A stretch of 64,000 nucleotides of DNA from Trueperaceae bacterium (GTDB taxonomy: Bacteria > Deinococcota > Deinococci > Deinococcales > Trueperaceae), in the NCBI GenBank assembly GCA_965213925.1, contig OZ243927.1, positions 1,024,001 to 1,088,000 on the forward strand, read 5' to 3'. Made by a program: the position numbers and the translations under genes. Below are positions 5,355-18,694 of the stretch, piece by piece (positions within the stretch are counted from its first letter, which is position 1; every line of letters begins with the position of its first letter). The notes under the pieces were generated by a model, which was given only the letters and a program-made list of their open reading frames with translations, did no database searches and had not been told where the DNA came from.

Positions 5355-6440
5355 CTAGCTCGGTCTACAATCCTCGTGACTGACCTGCTGGGTTCTCAGC
5401 TTAGCCTCTCGTGTGGTCGCTCTCACCCGGTTACGCTGTTTATACTCGTACATCTCGCTGTCCGCTTTCTTGAGCAAGGCGCGGAGTGTGCTACCCGCTC
5501 GCGGAAACTGCGCGACGCCGATGCTCGCGTCTAGGTGCACCTCTTCGCCCTCGAGCCTAAAAGGGGCGGCCAAGCACGCAGCGTAACGCTCGGCGACTCG
5601 CTTGGCTCCGCCGCAACCATTATGCGCATAACTGCTAGGCTCATAACCGTGTGGGTGGACCTCGAGCAAACAGACAAATTCGTCGCCGCCGAGCCGCGCT
5701 AAGAGGTCGCTCTCGCGCGTCTGGTTCTTAAAACGCTCGGCTACCTTGATGAGAAGCGAGTCGCCCGCATCGTGACCAAGCGTGTCGTTGATCTCTTTGA
5801 AGCCGTTTAGGTCGAGGTAAAAGAGGTTCAGCTCGCGAGCGTGCCTTTTGGCTGAGGCGATCATCTGCGCGGCCCGCTCGAAAAAGGCGCGTCGGTTGGG
5901 CAGACCGGTCAGCGCGTCGGTGTAAGCCGCCCGCGCGATTTCTTGTTCGAAGCGTTTATGGCTAGTAACGTCGATATGCGAAATGACTGCGCCGCCGCTG
6001 TCTCCACCTAGTGGTTTAATATACATGACGAACCACCTTTCGCCCTCGCCTACGAAGTGGGAATACTCGAGCGTAAACTCCGCGCTCGAGCCCGCTAAAA
6101 CGTCGTGCAGACCTCTGCAAATCTGACCTAACCGAGACGCTCCCTCTAGCTCATGATGGTGCGCGTCTCCACATAGATGGAGGTAGTTTGCACCGCGCTC
6201 TGCGTAGAGGGAGGGATCATATTTAGCGAAGTGCTCCCACGCCTTGTTGGTCTCGACGATCACGCCGCTCGAATCAAGAATCGCCATCTGTTGCGGCGCG
6301 ACGTCAAACGCCCGAAGGTGAACGTTGGATAATGCGTTGGTGGGCACAGTGCCCCTCCTCCCTTTAGAGCCCGAAAAGAAAGCTGACGCAGTAGGCTCGC
6401 CCTGTCCTGTATGGACTAGCGGTTCTACGCTATCATTCAA
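5355..6440 (-). CDS. PAS-GGDEF diguanylate cyclase
   Basis: PAS-like ILDSSGVIVETN.AW; DALTGLPNRR, DLNGFKEINDTLGHDAGD, RESD I-site 5 residues before an intact GGDEF. Confidence 0.93.
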   Translation of the reverse strand: MNDSVEPLVHTGQGEPTASAFFSGSKGRRGTVPTNALSNVHLRAFDVAPQQMAILDSSGVIVETNKAWEHFAKYDPSLYAERGANYLHLCGDAHHHELEGASRLGQICRGLHDVLAGSSAEFTLEYSHFVGEGERWFVMYIKPLGGDSGGAVISHIDVTSHKRFEQEIARAAYTDALTGLPNRRAFFERAAQMIASAKRHARELNLFYLDLNGFKEINDTLGHDAGDSLLIKVAERFKNQTRESDLLARLGGDEFVCLLEVHPHGYEPSSYAHNGCGGAKRVAERYAACLAAPFRLEGEEVHLDASIGVAQFPRAGSTLRALLKKADSEMYEYKQRNRVRATTREAKLRTQQVSHEDCRPS

Positions 6441-16171: not shown

Positions 16172-17095
16172 ATGAACGACGTGGACGAAGCTGCCTTACC
16201 GCAGGGGCTATCCCTCCGCAAGAAAGGGGAGAGCCTCGAGACGGTCTCCTCGAAAGCGATTGAGTTACAGCTTTTAGTGGCGAGTCAAGGCGTAGAGATT
16301 CTTGAAGGGCAACTTCATAAAGGTGAGCGTATAACCCTCATTCCCTCAGGTAAAGCGGTAGAAACGTACTATATTTTAGAAGGACAGTTACGTGGCGACG
16401 CAGCTTCCGGGTCTACGGTTGTCGGTGCGGGAGATTATCTCGTGACAGAGTCGCTAGAGACGTCCTATACCCTGCTCGCGCAAACCGACGTTCGCTTTCT
16501 CTATTTCACCTCAAAGCCCACCTTTCACGAAATAAGCGAAGAGCTTGGCGATCTGATGCAGCTCGCCGTCGAAGTCGAAGTTAAAGACGGCTACACGAGT
16601 GAGCATTGCAGGCGCTTACAGGTACTCTCTTACGCTGCGGGTCAAGAACTTGGTTTAGGGCAAGACAGACTCTATCTCTTGGATTACGGCGCGTATCTGC
16701 ACGACGTGGGCAAGGTCAAAGTGCCCGTCAATATTTTGCGTAAACCTTCCACCTTGACGCAAGCGGAGTGGACGCTCATGAAAAAGCATCCTACGTTCGG
16801 GCGCGAACTCCTCGAGAAAACCTACTTGAAAAGAGCCGGTATCATCGTCGAGCAACATCATGAGCGCTTAGACGGAAGCGGCTATCCCCACGCACTCTCT
16901 GGGGAGGACGTTCTGGTCGAGTCTTATATCGTCGCCGTCGCGGACGCCTACGACGCGATGACGACAGACCGCCCCTACCGCCGCGCTGCGCCGCCAGAGC
17001 ATGCGTTTGCCGAGCTTAGGAGATACGCCGGGATATACTATCCAAAAGAGGTCGTGGACGCCTTTATTTCGGTCGTGATGAGAAAAGCGCTTTAG
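16172..17095 (+). CDS. Cupin-like + HD-GYP c-di-GMP phosphodiesterase
   Basis: C-terminal KD.YT..H..R, YLHDVGK, HHERLDGSGYP, VADAYDAMTTDRPYR; N-terminal cupin-like ETYYILEG..GAGD. Confidence 0.92.
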   Translation: MNDVDEAALPQGLSLRKKGESLETVSSKAIELQLLVASQGVEILEGQLHKGERITLIPSGKAVETYYILEGQLRGDAASGSTVVGAGDYLVTESLETSYTLLAQTDVRFLYFTSKPTFHEISEELGDLMQLAVEVEVKDGYTSEHCRRLQVLSYAAGQELGLGQDRLYLLDYGAYLHDVGKVKVPVNILRKPSTLTQAEWTLMKKHPTFGRELLEKTYLKRAGIIVEQHHERLDGSGYPHALSGEDVLVESYIVAVADAYDAMTTDRPYRRAAPPEHAFAELRRYAGIYYPKEVVDAFISVVMRKAL

Positions 17096-17570
17096 TAGCG
17101 TTACCTAAAAATTTACGTGCCCGGCTGAAAATAGGTGAGCGAATGTTATCGCATCCGCAGTTTCGCACATTTTGCTGGCTAAGCGCTCGAGAAGGCACAA
17201 AGCGCAACGTTAATATTATTCCTAGTTCGCTCTATATTCGGCTTACCGACTTGAGACGTGGCAAATCACTACGCCAGAGCCAAAATGTAATTAGTATCAC
17301 AGCGTATGCGCGTACTTGTTTCAACTATTGAAATGATTTCCACAAACAGCATCAACCTATCTTCAAAAATAAAAAGATGAGAGCCGTTCGCGCGTTGAAA
17401 AACCCTTAATGTTCGTTCAGAACGAATAAGAAGAATTTCACGCACTATTAAAAAAGCTTCTATGAGTTTCTAGTGTGCCTGATATCACTTGTTCTCATGG
17501 TTGTGAGAATTTCACCTCTAAGTATTTCAATACCCATGATACGTTGTCTTTCGAGGTTGATAAGCCTCAT

Positions 17571-17713
17571 CGGAAGCGACGACTTCTGCCCCGCAAGGAG
17601 CCTTTAGCTATCATGCCGTTATCAAACGCGCTGGCTCGATGACCAGATGCTACCTGCTGCTAAAGGCTCTTCTGGGCGCTTGGGACAGAAGAAGCTAGTA
17701 GCGCAACCGGCCG
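17571..17713 (+). ncRNA. c-di-GMP-II riboswitch with a large insertion in the L3 loop
   Basis: CGG-AAGC-GACGA-CTTCTGCCC..[81 nt]..TGGGCGCTT-GGGACAGAAG-AA-GCT-AGTAGCGCAACCGGCCG. Matches the class-II pattern (..UGGGCACUU..GUUAGUAGUGCAACCGACCG, recalled consensus) with compensatory changes in P2 (AGC/GCT) and the pseudoknot (GCGCT/AGCGC). Confidence 0.85.
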
Positions 17714-17782
17714 GGAAACTCTTCCGGACAACTTGAAAAGCTTCGGAAAACCGGAGCACGCCATATCAGGGAGGATATGAAA

Positions 17783-17914
17783 ATGAAAAAGTCACTTATT
17801 AAAGCGTTGGTTCTTACTCTTACTCTTACTGCGTTTGGTACGGTCTCGACGGCGAGCGCCGCCAAAGGCTCGGACAAGGCTCCGTCAGTTCAGAAGTTTA
17901 GAGTCAACCGCTAA
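17783..17914 (+). CDS. Small secreted peptide 1, 43 aa: MKKSLIKALVLTLTLTAFGTVSTASA|AKGSDKAPSVQKFRVNR
   Basis: GGGAGG RBS 8 nt upstream (alternative in-frame ATG at 17777); Sec signal with an A-S-A site; paralog downstream; own terminator. Confidence 0.88.
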   Translation: MKKSLIKALVLTLTLTAFGTVSTASAAKGSDKAPSVQKFRVNR

Positions 17915-17933
17915 AGGTTAAAAGTTCACCAAT

Positions 17934-17969
17934 AAGCTCCTCTACAAAGATGTAGAGGAGCTTTCTTTT
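17934..17969 (+). terminator. Intrinsic terminator of peptide 1
   Basis: Perfect 13-bp stem AAGCTCCTCTACA/TGTAGAGGAGCTT followed by TCTTTT. Confidence 0.88.
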
Positions 17970-18004
17970 GCCTATTTTTCGCTGTGAAGTTTTCCACATT
18001 GTAG

Positions 18005-18034
18005 TTGACGCTTCAAAGGTGAGCAGGTTAAACT
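18005..18034 (+). promoter_or_regulatory. Sigma70-type promoter of peptide 2
   Basis: TTGACG-N18-TAAACT, between terminator 1 and the peptide 2 RBS. Confidence 0.6.
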
Positions 18035-18076
18035 CGCTTGTCTGCAGACGAAATTTAGGGATAAAAGAGGGTGAAC

Positions 18077-18202
18077 ATGAAGAAACTCACAAGCCTAACG
18101 CTCGTTTTGGTACTAGCTATCTGTGGTTTATCTGTAGCGTCTGCTGGCTCCTCCACTTCGGATGGTGAACCGTCGGTTCAGAAGTACAGAGTCAACCGCT
18201 AA
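18077..18202 (+). CDS. Small secreted peptide 2, 41 aa: MKKLTSLTLVLVLAICGLSVASA|GSSTSDGEPSVQKYRVNR
   Basis: AAGAGGGTG RBS; Sec signal with an A-S-A site; last 10 aa match peptide 1 at 9/10 positions. Confidence 0.88.
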   Translation: MKKLTSLTLVLVLAICGLSVASAGSSTSDGEPSVQKYRVNR

Positions 18203-18220
18203 ATCATAAGAGATACGTCT

Positions 18221-18253
18221 GAGCGTCTCCGCGCGGAAGCGGAGGCGCTTTTT
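18221..18253 (+). terminator. Intrinsic terminator of peptide 2
   Basis: Stem GAGCGTCTCCGC/GCGGAGGCGCTT followed by a T-run. Confidence 0.8.
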
Positions 18254-18265
18254 CATGTTCTAAGG

Positions 18266-18694
18266 CTAAAGGTCGCGCGCCAAGAAGCGAATCGCAGCCT
18301 CGTAACCGTAGATTCCCAACCCTGCAACCGTTCCTACACAAACCGCTGAGAGGTAGCTGTGGTGCCTGAACGCTTCCCTCGCGTGGACGTTGGAGATGTG
18401 GACCTCGACGGCGGGCGTAGGGATGCTAGCGACCGCGTCGCGTAGGGCGACGGAGGTGTGCGTAAGACCTCCAGGATTGATGACGACGCCTCGCACGTCC
18501 CCGCTGACGGTTTCGTGAAGCCAGTCGATGAGCTGACCCTCGTGGTTGCTTTGGCGGCACCTCGCGCTCGTCCCGACCTCCTCTGCCCAACGTTCACACC
18601 GCGTCTCTAGGTCTTTGAGCGTCGCGCTGCCGTACACGCCTGGCTCGCGCGTTCCTAAGAGGTTGAGGTTGGGGCCGTTGAGGACTAGAATCAT
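18266..18694 (-). CDS. aroQ: Type II 3-dehydroquinate dehydratase
   Basis: LNGPNLNLLGTREP..YG, QSNHEG, NPGGLTHTS, EVHISN..ARE.FRH.S. Confidence 0.97.
   Translation of the reverse strand: MILVLNGPNLNLLGTREPGVYGSATLKDLETRCERWAEEVGTSARCRQSNHEGQLIDWLHETVSGDVRGVVINPGGLTHTSVALRDAVASIPTPAVEVHISNVHAREAFRHHSYLSAVCVGTVAGLGIYGYEAAIRFLARDL

Follow-up and report, generated by a model that had tools for sequence, protein, structure and literature searches.

Positions 16172–18253 of a 64,000-nucleotide (nt) stretch of DNA from a Trueperaceae bacterium (GenBank assembly GCA_965213925.1, contig OZ243927.1, positions 1,024,001 to 1,088,000 of the forward strand), the whole of which is called the window below and supplies the numbering, hold a gene for an HD-GYP phosphodiesterase, a class-II riboswitch aptamer for cyclic diguanosine monophosphate (c-di-GMP), and two very short genes for candidate secreted peptides. 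The best explanation of this locus, at a probability of roughly 60%, is that it represents a Trueperaceae cassette in which an HD-GYP gene is joined to an aptamer-led pre-peptide gene, working as a proposed c-di-GMP switch. The parts follow one another on the plus strand as a 307-residue open reading frame (ORF), a 468-nt AT-rich gap, a structured RNA, and two short ORFs. A sequence-only reading of the window had claimed four such co-oriented elements, and the ORF listing, Pfam, a covariance search, and leader alignment find all four where that reading had placed them. Its description of the locus as AT-richer is borne out by a guanine-plus-cytosine (GC) fraction of 0.38–0.50 across 17100–18150, against 0.58 for the genome. 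All four elements are genuine, and their architecture is conserved far more widely than the window.

Recurrence of the cassette in the genus and the family

The arrangement was followed in the source genome (G000) and in two further Trueperaceae genomes of the same genus (G001 and G002), each of which carries the order HD-GYP gene, aptamer, peptide gene twice. Locus A, the type found in the window, bears a tandem second peptide gene and locus B a single one, and the HD-GYP paralogs of the two loci are 65–68% identical. The co-occurrence of peptide, riboswitch, and HD-GYP gene, which the sequence-only reading had named as a check on itself, holds for 6/6 lead or singleton peptide genes in the three genomes, each of which is preceded by an aptamer and by an HD-GYP paralog in the same orientation. 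The six leaders differ greatly in how well Rfam recognizes them: G000 B (G000:C1:3916828-3916911) scores 69.1 bits, G002 B 47.5 bits, G001 A 43.8 bits (E 2e-6), G001 B 30.9 bits as a partial match, and the window leader, G000 A, 28.2 bits; G002 A gave no Rfam match at E ≤ 0.1.

For the wider family, 128 Trueperaceae genomes were searched with the enzyme at E ≤ 1e-80, and the downstream DNA was inspected at all 55 loci so obtained, which represent HD-GYP subfamily matches in 30/128 genomes and 14/36 genera. A small secreted ORF lies downstream in 39/55, of ~100 residues in 23 and of 41–65 residues in 16, and many of these share an F-R-V/F-N-x tail. Broken down by layout, the HD-GYP gene is followed by an aptamer and then a pre-peptide of 41–49 residues at 11/55 loci, by an aptamer and then a ~100-residue secreted protein at 2/55, by a small pre-peptide without aptamer at 5/55, by a ~100-residue secreted protein or lipoprotein without aptamer at 21/55, and by a 243-residue secreted protein at 1/55; the remaining 15/55 have no such neighbor, 2 of them with less than 410 nt of downstream sequence. 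The aptamer thus stands between HD-GYP gene and secreted ORF at 13 loci in 6 genera, namely the window's own genus and 5 others, and those outside the genus, 7 in number, reach 55.1–64.9 bits, all above the gathering score. In a quick tree of 50 HD-GYP paralogs and an outgroup (Shimodaira–Hasegawa-like approximate likelihood ratio test, no bootstrap), the locus A and locus B enzymes fall into one clade (96); the tree gives no firm order for its deep branches and does not separate a single origin of the aptamer linkage from several. The HD-GYP profile also returned 80 loci from metagenome contigs, mostly generic HD-GYP domains, and the aptamer core motif was present at 0/80 of them.

The aptamer and its leader

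The aptamer spans 17563–17720 on the plus strand and comprises helices P1, P2, and P3 and a pseudoknot. No Rfam match at the gathering score was found anywhere in the window. A sensitive search of 17050–18300 (1.25 kb) returned RF03169 (c-di-GMP-II-GAG) at 28.2 bits against a gathering score of 40 (E 0.0053), with an alignment that is full-length apart from 85 unaligned nt in the P3 loop; RF01786 (clan CL00127) matched the 3′ half only, at 21.7 bits (E 0.094 genome-wide). The claim of a class-II c-di-GMP aptamer nevertheless holds, its homology being established by the orthologous and paralogous leaders in addition to this sub-gathering covariance match (28.2 bits). In an alignment with five related leaders, the window leader has every conserved block of the canonical copies. 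There are 6 pairs in P1 and 3 in P2, and P3 pairs at 7/8 positions; the pseudoknot strands GCGCU (17676–17680) and AGCGC (17700–17704) are complementary, and the same helix covaries in other G000 copies as GCACC/GGUGC and GCAUC/GAUGC. The pocket bases AACCG at 17705–17709 and the A-U pair that opens P2 are present, and pseudoknot and pocket bases match the canonical class-II consensus and not that of the GAG variant. The ligand contacts described in PMC13715770 are A69, A70, and G73 (3Q3Z numbering) together with the first A-U pair of P2, and AACCG at 17705–17709 would, as we map it, correspond to them. By these comparisons RNA 17563–17720 is a true class-II homolog. The name of the best-scoring model was tried as a label and rejected: the positions that give the GAG variant its name read GCAACC here, which is canonical, and not GAGACC.

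Conservation is concentrated on the leader. Between G000 and G001 it is identical at 191/197 positions; the peptide coding sequence reaches 0.92 and the upstream spacer 0.55, which by this measure makes the leader the most conserved part of the locus. The ~440-nt AT-rich spacer that precedes it (17096–17536) has a GC fraction of 0.38–0.51 and an identity of 0.41–0.55 among the three orthologous spacers, and no terminator-like site was found within it.

The P3 loop of the window aptamer is occupied, at 17609–17674 on the plus strand, by a copy of a dispersed hairpin repeat resembling a miniature inverted-repeat transposable element. A 66-nt copy, 91% identical, lies at G000:C1:4282086-4282150 with no aptamer around it, and the 19-nt core (17640–17658) has 75 matches in the genome at ≤2 mismatches, on both strands; many copies are ~85-nt units with inverted ends, GCAGGTATCATC ... 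GATGATACCTGC, and others stand in tandem at 663176 and 663204, and at 2572172 and 2572198, of G000:C1. In a thermodynamic fold the insertion folds back on itself. The low Rfam score of the window aptamer is largely due to this interruption of the P3 loop. Insertions of ~15–72 nt occupy the same site in 5/6 leaders of the genus, and another G000 aptamer with a 43-nt insert there still scores 45 bits. Rfam thresholds can thus miss genuine aptamers that are split by small repeats, and the interrupted window copy presumably binds c-di-GMP. A lone class-II 3′ half with no recognizable 5′ half lies at G000:C1:305105-305173 (L050), and its loop-proximal sequence equals the end of the window insert; this would be either a relic or an aptamer copy with a very long insertion.

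The leader transcript probably has its own extended −10 promoter, TGnTACGTT at 17537–17545 on the plus strand. The pattern TGnTAnnnT recurs at the same distance upstream of the leader hairpin in 7/8 leaders compared in their upstream sequence, G019 being the one in which no such motif is seen; a consensus promoter scan missed it. Two hairpins flank and compete with the aptamer helix P1. An upstream hairpin, GAGG...CCUC (17553–17568, plus strand), overlaps and competes for the 5′ strand of P1; it is found in all six leaders of the genus and forms in unconstrained folds. On the other side, the P1 3′ strand CCGGGA (17711–17716) is able to pair with UUCCGG (17722–17727), giving an alternative hairpin at 17711–17727 on the plus strand that is conserved in the six genus leaders, carries a compensatory change in G002 (CUGGGA...UCCCAG), and has analogs using the P1 3′ strand in the leaders of G005, G054, G055, G056, and G019. 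The genus leaders have no terminator between aptamer and start codon, so that control is most likely exerted at the level of translation; the leaders of G005 and G054, unlike that of the window, carry terminator-like hairpins.

Eight leaders were folded with and without the aptamer enforced, and the platforms of 13 leaders were folded as well. The sole clear drop in exposure of the Shine–Dalgarno sequence on enforcing the aptamer occurred in G019 (0.21 to 0.01). At locus B the segment that would be released on formation of P1 is an anti-Shine–Dalgarno sequence, a chain of pairings that might suggest an OFF switch; equilibrium folds did not discriminate on from off.

The source genome is rich in aptamers of this class: 11 matches pass the RF03169 cut-off and 8 that of RF01786, largely at the same sites, and most of its class-II aptamers stand ahead of lipoprotein or secreted-protein genes. 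Among 41 relatives of the order, 32 have class-II matches. Three aptamers lie within 1.4 kb at G000:C1:3694670-3696087 (L005, L008, L009), two of them in tandem 155 nt apart, ahead of paralogous secreted proteins of 166–218 residues with a common HDVxVxIPNVLR-like motif. The aptamers at G000:C1:3021070-3021156 and 3986137-3986223 (L002, L003) are identical to each other, as is their downstream sequence as far as printed, which encodes a lipoprotein of at least 488 residues with QANQTN repeats; this identity suggests that a large segment was duplicated recently or that the assembly repeats it.

The enzyme, the peptides, and the larger secreted partners

The enzyme gene (16172–17095, plus strand) encodes 307 residues without a visible signal peptide or membrane segment, and its two domains are assigned from Pfam, an AlphaFold model, and Foldseek. 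Over residues 136–290, Pfam reports HD_5 (E 9.8e-28, 97.4 bits, cut-off 27.2) and HD (E 8.6e-16, 58.7 bits, cut-off 22); the HD and HHERLDGSGYP motifs are legible in the translation, and the HD-GYP motif columns are invariant in a 42-sequence alignment. In the N-terminal 135 residues cupin profiles stay below threshold (Cupin_2 15.3 bits vs. 27.2, E 0.016; Cupin_3 13.9 vs. 23.5), and one homolog (P0040) has a precomputed PF07883 match. The AlphaFold (AF2) model built from the 42-sequence alignment, with a predicted local distance difference test score (pLDDT) of 86.7, is all-beta over residues 23–113, forming a beta-sandwich, and then helical. Its helical part retrieved 4mcw (E 4.5e-13), 4r8z (TMt 0.74), and 9rbz (TMt 0.71), and its beta part tm1459, ectoine synthase, and KdgF (E ~1e-7 to 1e-6, TMt 0.6–0.7, cupins such as tm1459 reaching ~0.65–0.7). 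The earlier label of cupin plus HD-GYP is therefore upheld, the HD-GYP half by Pfam and the cupin half by the fold of the predicted model, according to which the N-terminal domain has a cupin fold.

HD-GYP domains hydrolyse c-di-GMP. The closest sequences in the PDB are 5z7c, a phosphodiesterase specific for 3′3′-cyclic GMP–AMP (cGAMP), at 3e-29, and the c-di-GMP enzyme PmGH (4mcw) at 4.7e-29; because the two kinds of phosphodiesterase match about equally, the substrate is inferred only, and the enzyme probably degrades c-di-GMP. The histidines and aspartates that align with those of 4mcw are conserved. Four residues before the first histidine, the window enzyme has a tyrosine, as does 5z7c, where 4mcw has a glutamate, the residue that binds the third metal in PmGH. 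Close homologs number at least 120, at 53–100% identity, among the 1653 proteins retrieved at E ≤ 1e-30. A complex prediction for the HD-GYP protein with the pre-peptide (score 0.01, mark 0.32) counts neither for nor against binding.

Peptide gene 1 (17783–17914, plus strand) encodes a 43-residue pre-peptide with the tail PSVQKFRVNR and is supported by conservation and by a signal-peptide-like N-terminus with A-S-A. The sequence-only reading had set this ORF 70 nt after the aptamer; the ORF is there, and the distance is 62 nt. A Shine–Dalgarno sequence, GGGAGGA (17769–17775, plus strand), conserved in the leader alignment, precedes the ATG at 17783 by 7 nt. Alternative in-frame starts exist at 17777 for gene 1 and 18071 for gene 2, with good Shine–Dalgarno spacing at the second ATG of each, and 17783 is the likelier start because the ATG at 17777 sits 1 nt from the Shine–Dalgarno sequence. 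A terminator-like hairpin with a 13-pair stem and a T-rich tail follows at 17934–17963 (plus strand). The paralogous 41-residue ORF reported earlier is likewise present, at 18077–18202 (plus strand), as peptide gene 2, with the tail PSVQKYRVNR; it lacks an aptamer of its own, is retained in G001 and G002 as the second gene of a tandem, and is followed at 18221–18250 (plus strand) by a terminator-like hairpin of 12 pairs, 8 of them G-C, and a T run. A promoter-like site, TTGACG-18-TAAACT at 18005–18034 (plus strand), lies ahead of it; it comes from a consensus scan with 9/12 matches, which is not evidence of function. Owing to this site and the missing aptamer, peptide gene 2 probably lies outside riboswitch gating. 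The view that HD-GYP gene, aptamer, and peptide genes act as one unit is supported by their joint duplication in the genome and conservation in the genus, and by the aptamer-bearing versions in other genera, more strongly than the sequence alone could show.

Both ORFs are, on the pattern of their conservation, coding genes, each with a ribosome-binding site and a terminator-like hairpin. Their lengths are kept among orthologs; between G000 and G001, gene 1 has 8 synonymous and 3 non-synonymous codon changes; and across the three genomes the peptide coding sequences are 0.76–0.92 identical, compared with 0.41–0.69 for the spacers. Conservation within the peptides is concentrated in the C-terminal tail. 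A third G000 paralog is encoded at C1:3916654-3916776, and all three peptides of this genome have an MKK start, a hydrophobic stretch of 14–18 residues, and ASA before the predicted cut. As a control for chance, the tail motif [FYW][RKE][VFI][NS]x-end was found in 7/20080 ATG-initiated ORFs of at least 30 residues in the genome, and among genome ORFs of 30–70 residues the three peptides alone combine it with a signal-peptide-like start. Peptide homologs among the 41 relatives were confined to the same genus; six other public proteins exist besides, for 8 public matches overall. The prediction that standard gene callers miss both peptides is half wrong: the exact 43-residue protein is already public for this contig (P0002), the 41-residue one being absent among the 8 matches. 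Searched with the peptide profile, genome contigs returned the G002 contig only, and metagenome contigs 14 pattern matches, none of them confirmed. A lipoprotein reading of peptide 2 was considered and rejected, LAIC being a poor lipobox with the A-S-A site following it. The terminal residue of the peptides (window 17912; L044, L045) alternates between Arg and Cys among orthologs, as FRVNR, FRVNC, or YRVNC, and a terminal Cys could allow disulfide-linked dimers.

The ~100-residue proteins that occupy the same genomic position elsewhere end in ...[IV]P[VI]DP[FLI]x[FY][SNG]x, the two aptamer-linked ones in ...DPFRFNR; peptide tails read FRVNR, FEFNR, or FEVNK. Alignment of L056:5644-5964 (G000:C1:4017643-4017963) with 16 relatives gave the family signature QEGxH ... 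DHYYIW ... PVDPFRFN-end. The family has no Pfam match at E ≤ 1 and no informative Atlas neighbor (scores ≤0.85), and its AF2 model (pLDDT 81.9) drew no fold match from Foldseek (best E 1.4) or a wide VIA-align search (best Z 3.0), which does not make the fold new. From the ~5 shared residues and the common genomic position, the peptides may be tail-only relatives of this partner. Some precursors carry repeated units, (GAIATK)x7 in L175 (G139:C522), (GFKISN)x2 in L061 (G001:C4:980000-985000), and (PVTNPFRFS[NR])x2 in L058 (G005:C1:3106500-3111500), and by sequence look like multi-copy pro-peptides. At G000:C1:4013816-4017963 (L056), another c-di-GMP-II aptamer stands ahead of a 750-residue ORF with a lipoprotein-like start, and 2.8 kb downstream of that aptamer comes a third HD-GYP paralog; the gene for the ~100-residue partner comes after the HD-GYP paralog, and the whole may be a longer riboswitch-led operon.

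Two neighboring genes complete the picture of the locus. The minus-strand gene at 18266–18694, which adjoins the cassette, encodes a class II dehydroquinase by Pfam. The ORF at 5355–6440, with PAS and GGDEF domains (GGDEF E 3.6e-40, PAS_4 E 6.7e-6), is also on the minus strand, ~10 kb from the cassette and not co-oriented with it; no link between this gene and the cassette turned up, and no test aimed at such a link was made.

The proposed switch, its alternatives, and what it may mean

The proposed working of the cassette runs as follows. The gene for a cytoplasmic cupin–HD-GYP enzyme is followed by a leader with a class-II aptamer ahead of the gene for a 43-residue pre-peptide, the second peptide paralog, without an aptamer, having its own promoter-like site and terminator. 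In the unbound state the 3′ strand of P1 would form the alternative hairpin; binding of c-di-GMP to the aptamer would close P1 and re-pair the platform, changing translation initiation. The pre-peptide would be exported through Sec, and cleavage after A-x-A would release a basic peptide of ~17 residues, conserved in its C-terminal tail ...P-S-x-Q-K-[F/Y]-R-V-N-[R/C]; the HD-GYP enzyme, by lowering the cyclic dinucleotide, would feed back on the switch. We infer the translational mechanism, the export, and the cleavage from the leader and peptide sequences, and c-di-GMP might in this way control the output of an extracellular cell–cell signal. Since other genera have the same HD-GYP subfamily followed by a ~100-residue secreted protein with a similar tail (...P-V-D-P-F-R-F-N-x), the older conserved unit may be an HD-GYP gene with a tail-bearing secreted protein, the peptides being minimal, tail-only forms. 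An extension of this thought would make the F-R-V/F-N-x tail the active element of the secreted partner of a cupin-sensor HD-GYP enzyme, reduced in several genera to diffusible tail-only peptides, some of them multi-copy, gated by a riboswitch, and in mutual regulation with the second messenger; as a whole it is doubtful.

A number of observations weigh against the cassette as a c-di-GMP switch. In the family, 15/55 HD-GYP homologs lack a secreted-ORF neighbor, the counts include close kin and are not independent, an aptamer or a small secreted ORF is seen in 0/7 distant (28–40% identity) metagenome homologs of full or nearly full length, two of which had almost no downstream sequence, and the likeness between peptide tails and those of the ~100-residue proteins spans only ~5 residues. 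HD-GYP copies on the small G002 contigs C5 and C6 are identical in protein to the C and D paralogs of G000, which makes the counts less independent still; part of the G002 assembly may derive from a strain very near G000. Signal peptides were assigned by inspection and a rough rule, and the 3′3′-cGAMP phosphodiesterase 5z7c fits the enzyme as well as c-di-GMP enzymes do. The window aptamer itself falls under the Rfam gathering score, holds the 66-nt repeat, has one C·A mismatch in P3, and deviates at two conserved letters of the junction in the kink-turn region, CGA for UGA and GAA for GGA. Enforcing it hardly alters Shine–Dalgarno exposure in the window leader (0.79 vs. 0.80 unpaired). The G002 A aptamer, undetected by Rfam at E ≤ 0.1, has mismatches in P2, P3, and the pseudoknot, a degeneracy that suggests that riboswitch control may be decaying at locus A.

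Taken to its end, this last thought makes the window aptamer a decaying relic and the peptide independent of c-di-GMP, with only the intact paralog locus (G000:C1:3916828-3916911) working as a switch. Each defect just listed for the RNA would fit: the sub-threshold score, the P3 mismatch and two junction changes, the repeat insertion, the still more degenerate G002 ortholog, and a predicted Shine–Dalgarno exposure that is unaffected by enforcing the aptamer. Yet the 191/197 identity of the G000 and G001 leaders, set against 0.55–0.69 for the flanking spacers, is hard to square with decay, as are the intact pseudoknot and pocket bases and the compensatory change in the alternative hairpin, which is retained even in G002. 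The repeat, moreover, folds back on itself and occupies a loop site where 5/6 genus leaders have inserts, as does an aptamer that still scores 45 bits. A relic is unlikely on this evidence, and a working aptamer in the window leader is preferred.

Rather improbable, too, is a loop of the Rap–Phr kind, in which the exported tail peptide, re-imported or indirectly sensed, modulates the cupin–HD-GYP enzyme, so that cell density sets c-di-GMP and c-di-GMP gates the peptide. A receptor-like gene followed by a small secreted pro-peptide gene, as such a loop has it, is found at 16/55 loci; cupins are domains of a ligand-sensing type, some precursors contain tandem tail units as multi-copy pro-peptides do, and conservation centers on the C-terminal tail. 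However, the enzyme lacks the TPR domain of RRNPP receptors, the commoner partner (23/55) is a folded ~100-residue protein or lipoprotein and not a peptide, and adjacency may mean co-regulation alone. A ligand other than c-di-GMP, such as 3′3′-cGAMP or another cyclic dinucleotide, is very unlikely for the cassette. Its attraction lies in 5z7c (E 3e-29) as the top PDB sequence match of the HD-GYP domain, in the GAG variant model as the best Rfam model for the window, and in the statement of PMC13715770 that minor changes to a class-II aptamer can redirect its specificity to cGAMP; but the c-di-GMP enzyme 4mcw fits equally well (4.7e-29), the variant-naming positions of the window read canonical GCAACC rather than GAGACC, and canonical RF01786 is the best-scoring model for the paralog and for 6/7 aptamers from other genera. 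That the small ORFs are chance, non-coding open frames in an AT-rich spacer may be dismissed, short as they are, in view of their lengths and frames kept in three genomes, a third-position bias, coding sequence more conserved than the spacers, ribosome-binding sites and terminators flanking each ORF, eight related proteins in public data, and only three ORFs in the genome with both tail motif and signal-peptide-like start.

Set beside known systems, the cassette as a c-di-GMP switch is partly familiar. c-di-GMP riboswitches control adhesins, pili, and enzymes, and in Clostridia class-II riboswitches (RF01786) stand upstream of pilus and surface-protein genes. The cassette shares with them the P1-P2-P3 and pseudoknot architecture, the pocket bases, and a place in the 5′ leader of a gene whose product is, or is predicted to be, exported; it differs in that the controlled genes encode pre-peptides of 41–49 residues or ~100-residue proteins, always just 3′ of one HD-GYP subfamily, and in that the window copy is sub-threshold and its P3 loop holds a mobile repeat. 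The window enzyme shares the HD and HHExxDGxGYP motifs and the fold with the solved enzymes PmGH (4mcw), PA4781 (4r8z), DvhD (9rbz), and V-cGAP3 (5z7c), whereas its N-terminal sensor is a cupin and not REC, GAF, or PAS. With the Rap–Phr and RRNPP systems of Firmicutes it has in common the order of two co-oriented genes, one for a cytoplasmic enzyme or regulator and then one for a pre-peptide of ~40 residues with a signal peptide (a putative one here), a conserved part that is C-terminal, and, in some relatives, repeated tail units. RRNPP receptors have a TPR-type peptide-binding domain; the window cassette is without a TPR receptor, belongs to another phylum, and has a riboswitch between the genes, so that the likeness is one of layout only. 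RpfC/RpfG of Xanthomonas offers another parallel, an HD-GYP enzyme that couples a secreted signal to c-di-GMP turnover. There, a kinase senses a fatty acid (diffusible signal factor, DSF) and phosphorylates RpfG on its REC domain, whereas the cassette has a peptide as candidate signal and a cupin as sensor domain, without a linked kinase.

Both the riboswitch and the enzyme belong to known classes; the type of controlled gene and the conserved pairing are undescribed. Full-text literature searches, with subscription papers outside their reach, returned no riboswitch-controlled micropeptide adjoining an HD-GYP gene, and no account of the cupin–HD-GYP subfamily or of c-di-GMP signaling in Trueperaceae; nor did literature searches return any described system of such architecture in Deinococcota, in agreement with what the sequence-only reading had supposed. 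The cassette is a testable unit of less than 2 kb, and nature supplies its variants, with and without the aptamer, with a peptide or a ~100-residue partner, with single or repeated tails, and with or without the mobile insert. Its recurrence in one family hints at an undescribed link between a second messenger and a secreted peptide. If the peptide does act outside the cell or on the enzyme, second-messenger and peptide signaling would be joined in a phylum where both are little studied, and the cupin–HD-GYP subfamily, with its more than 100 close homologs, would gain a function.

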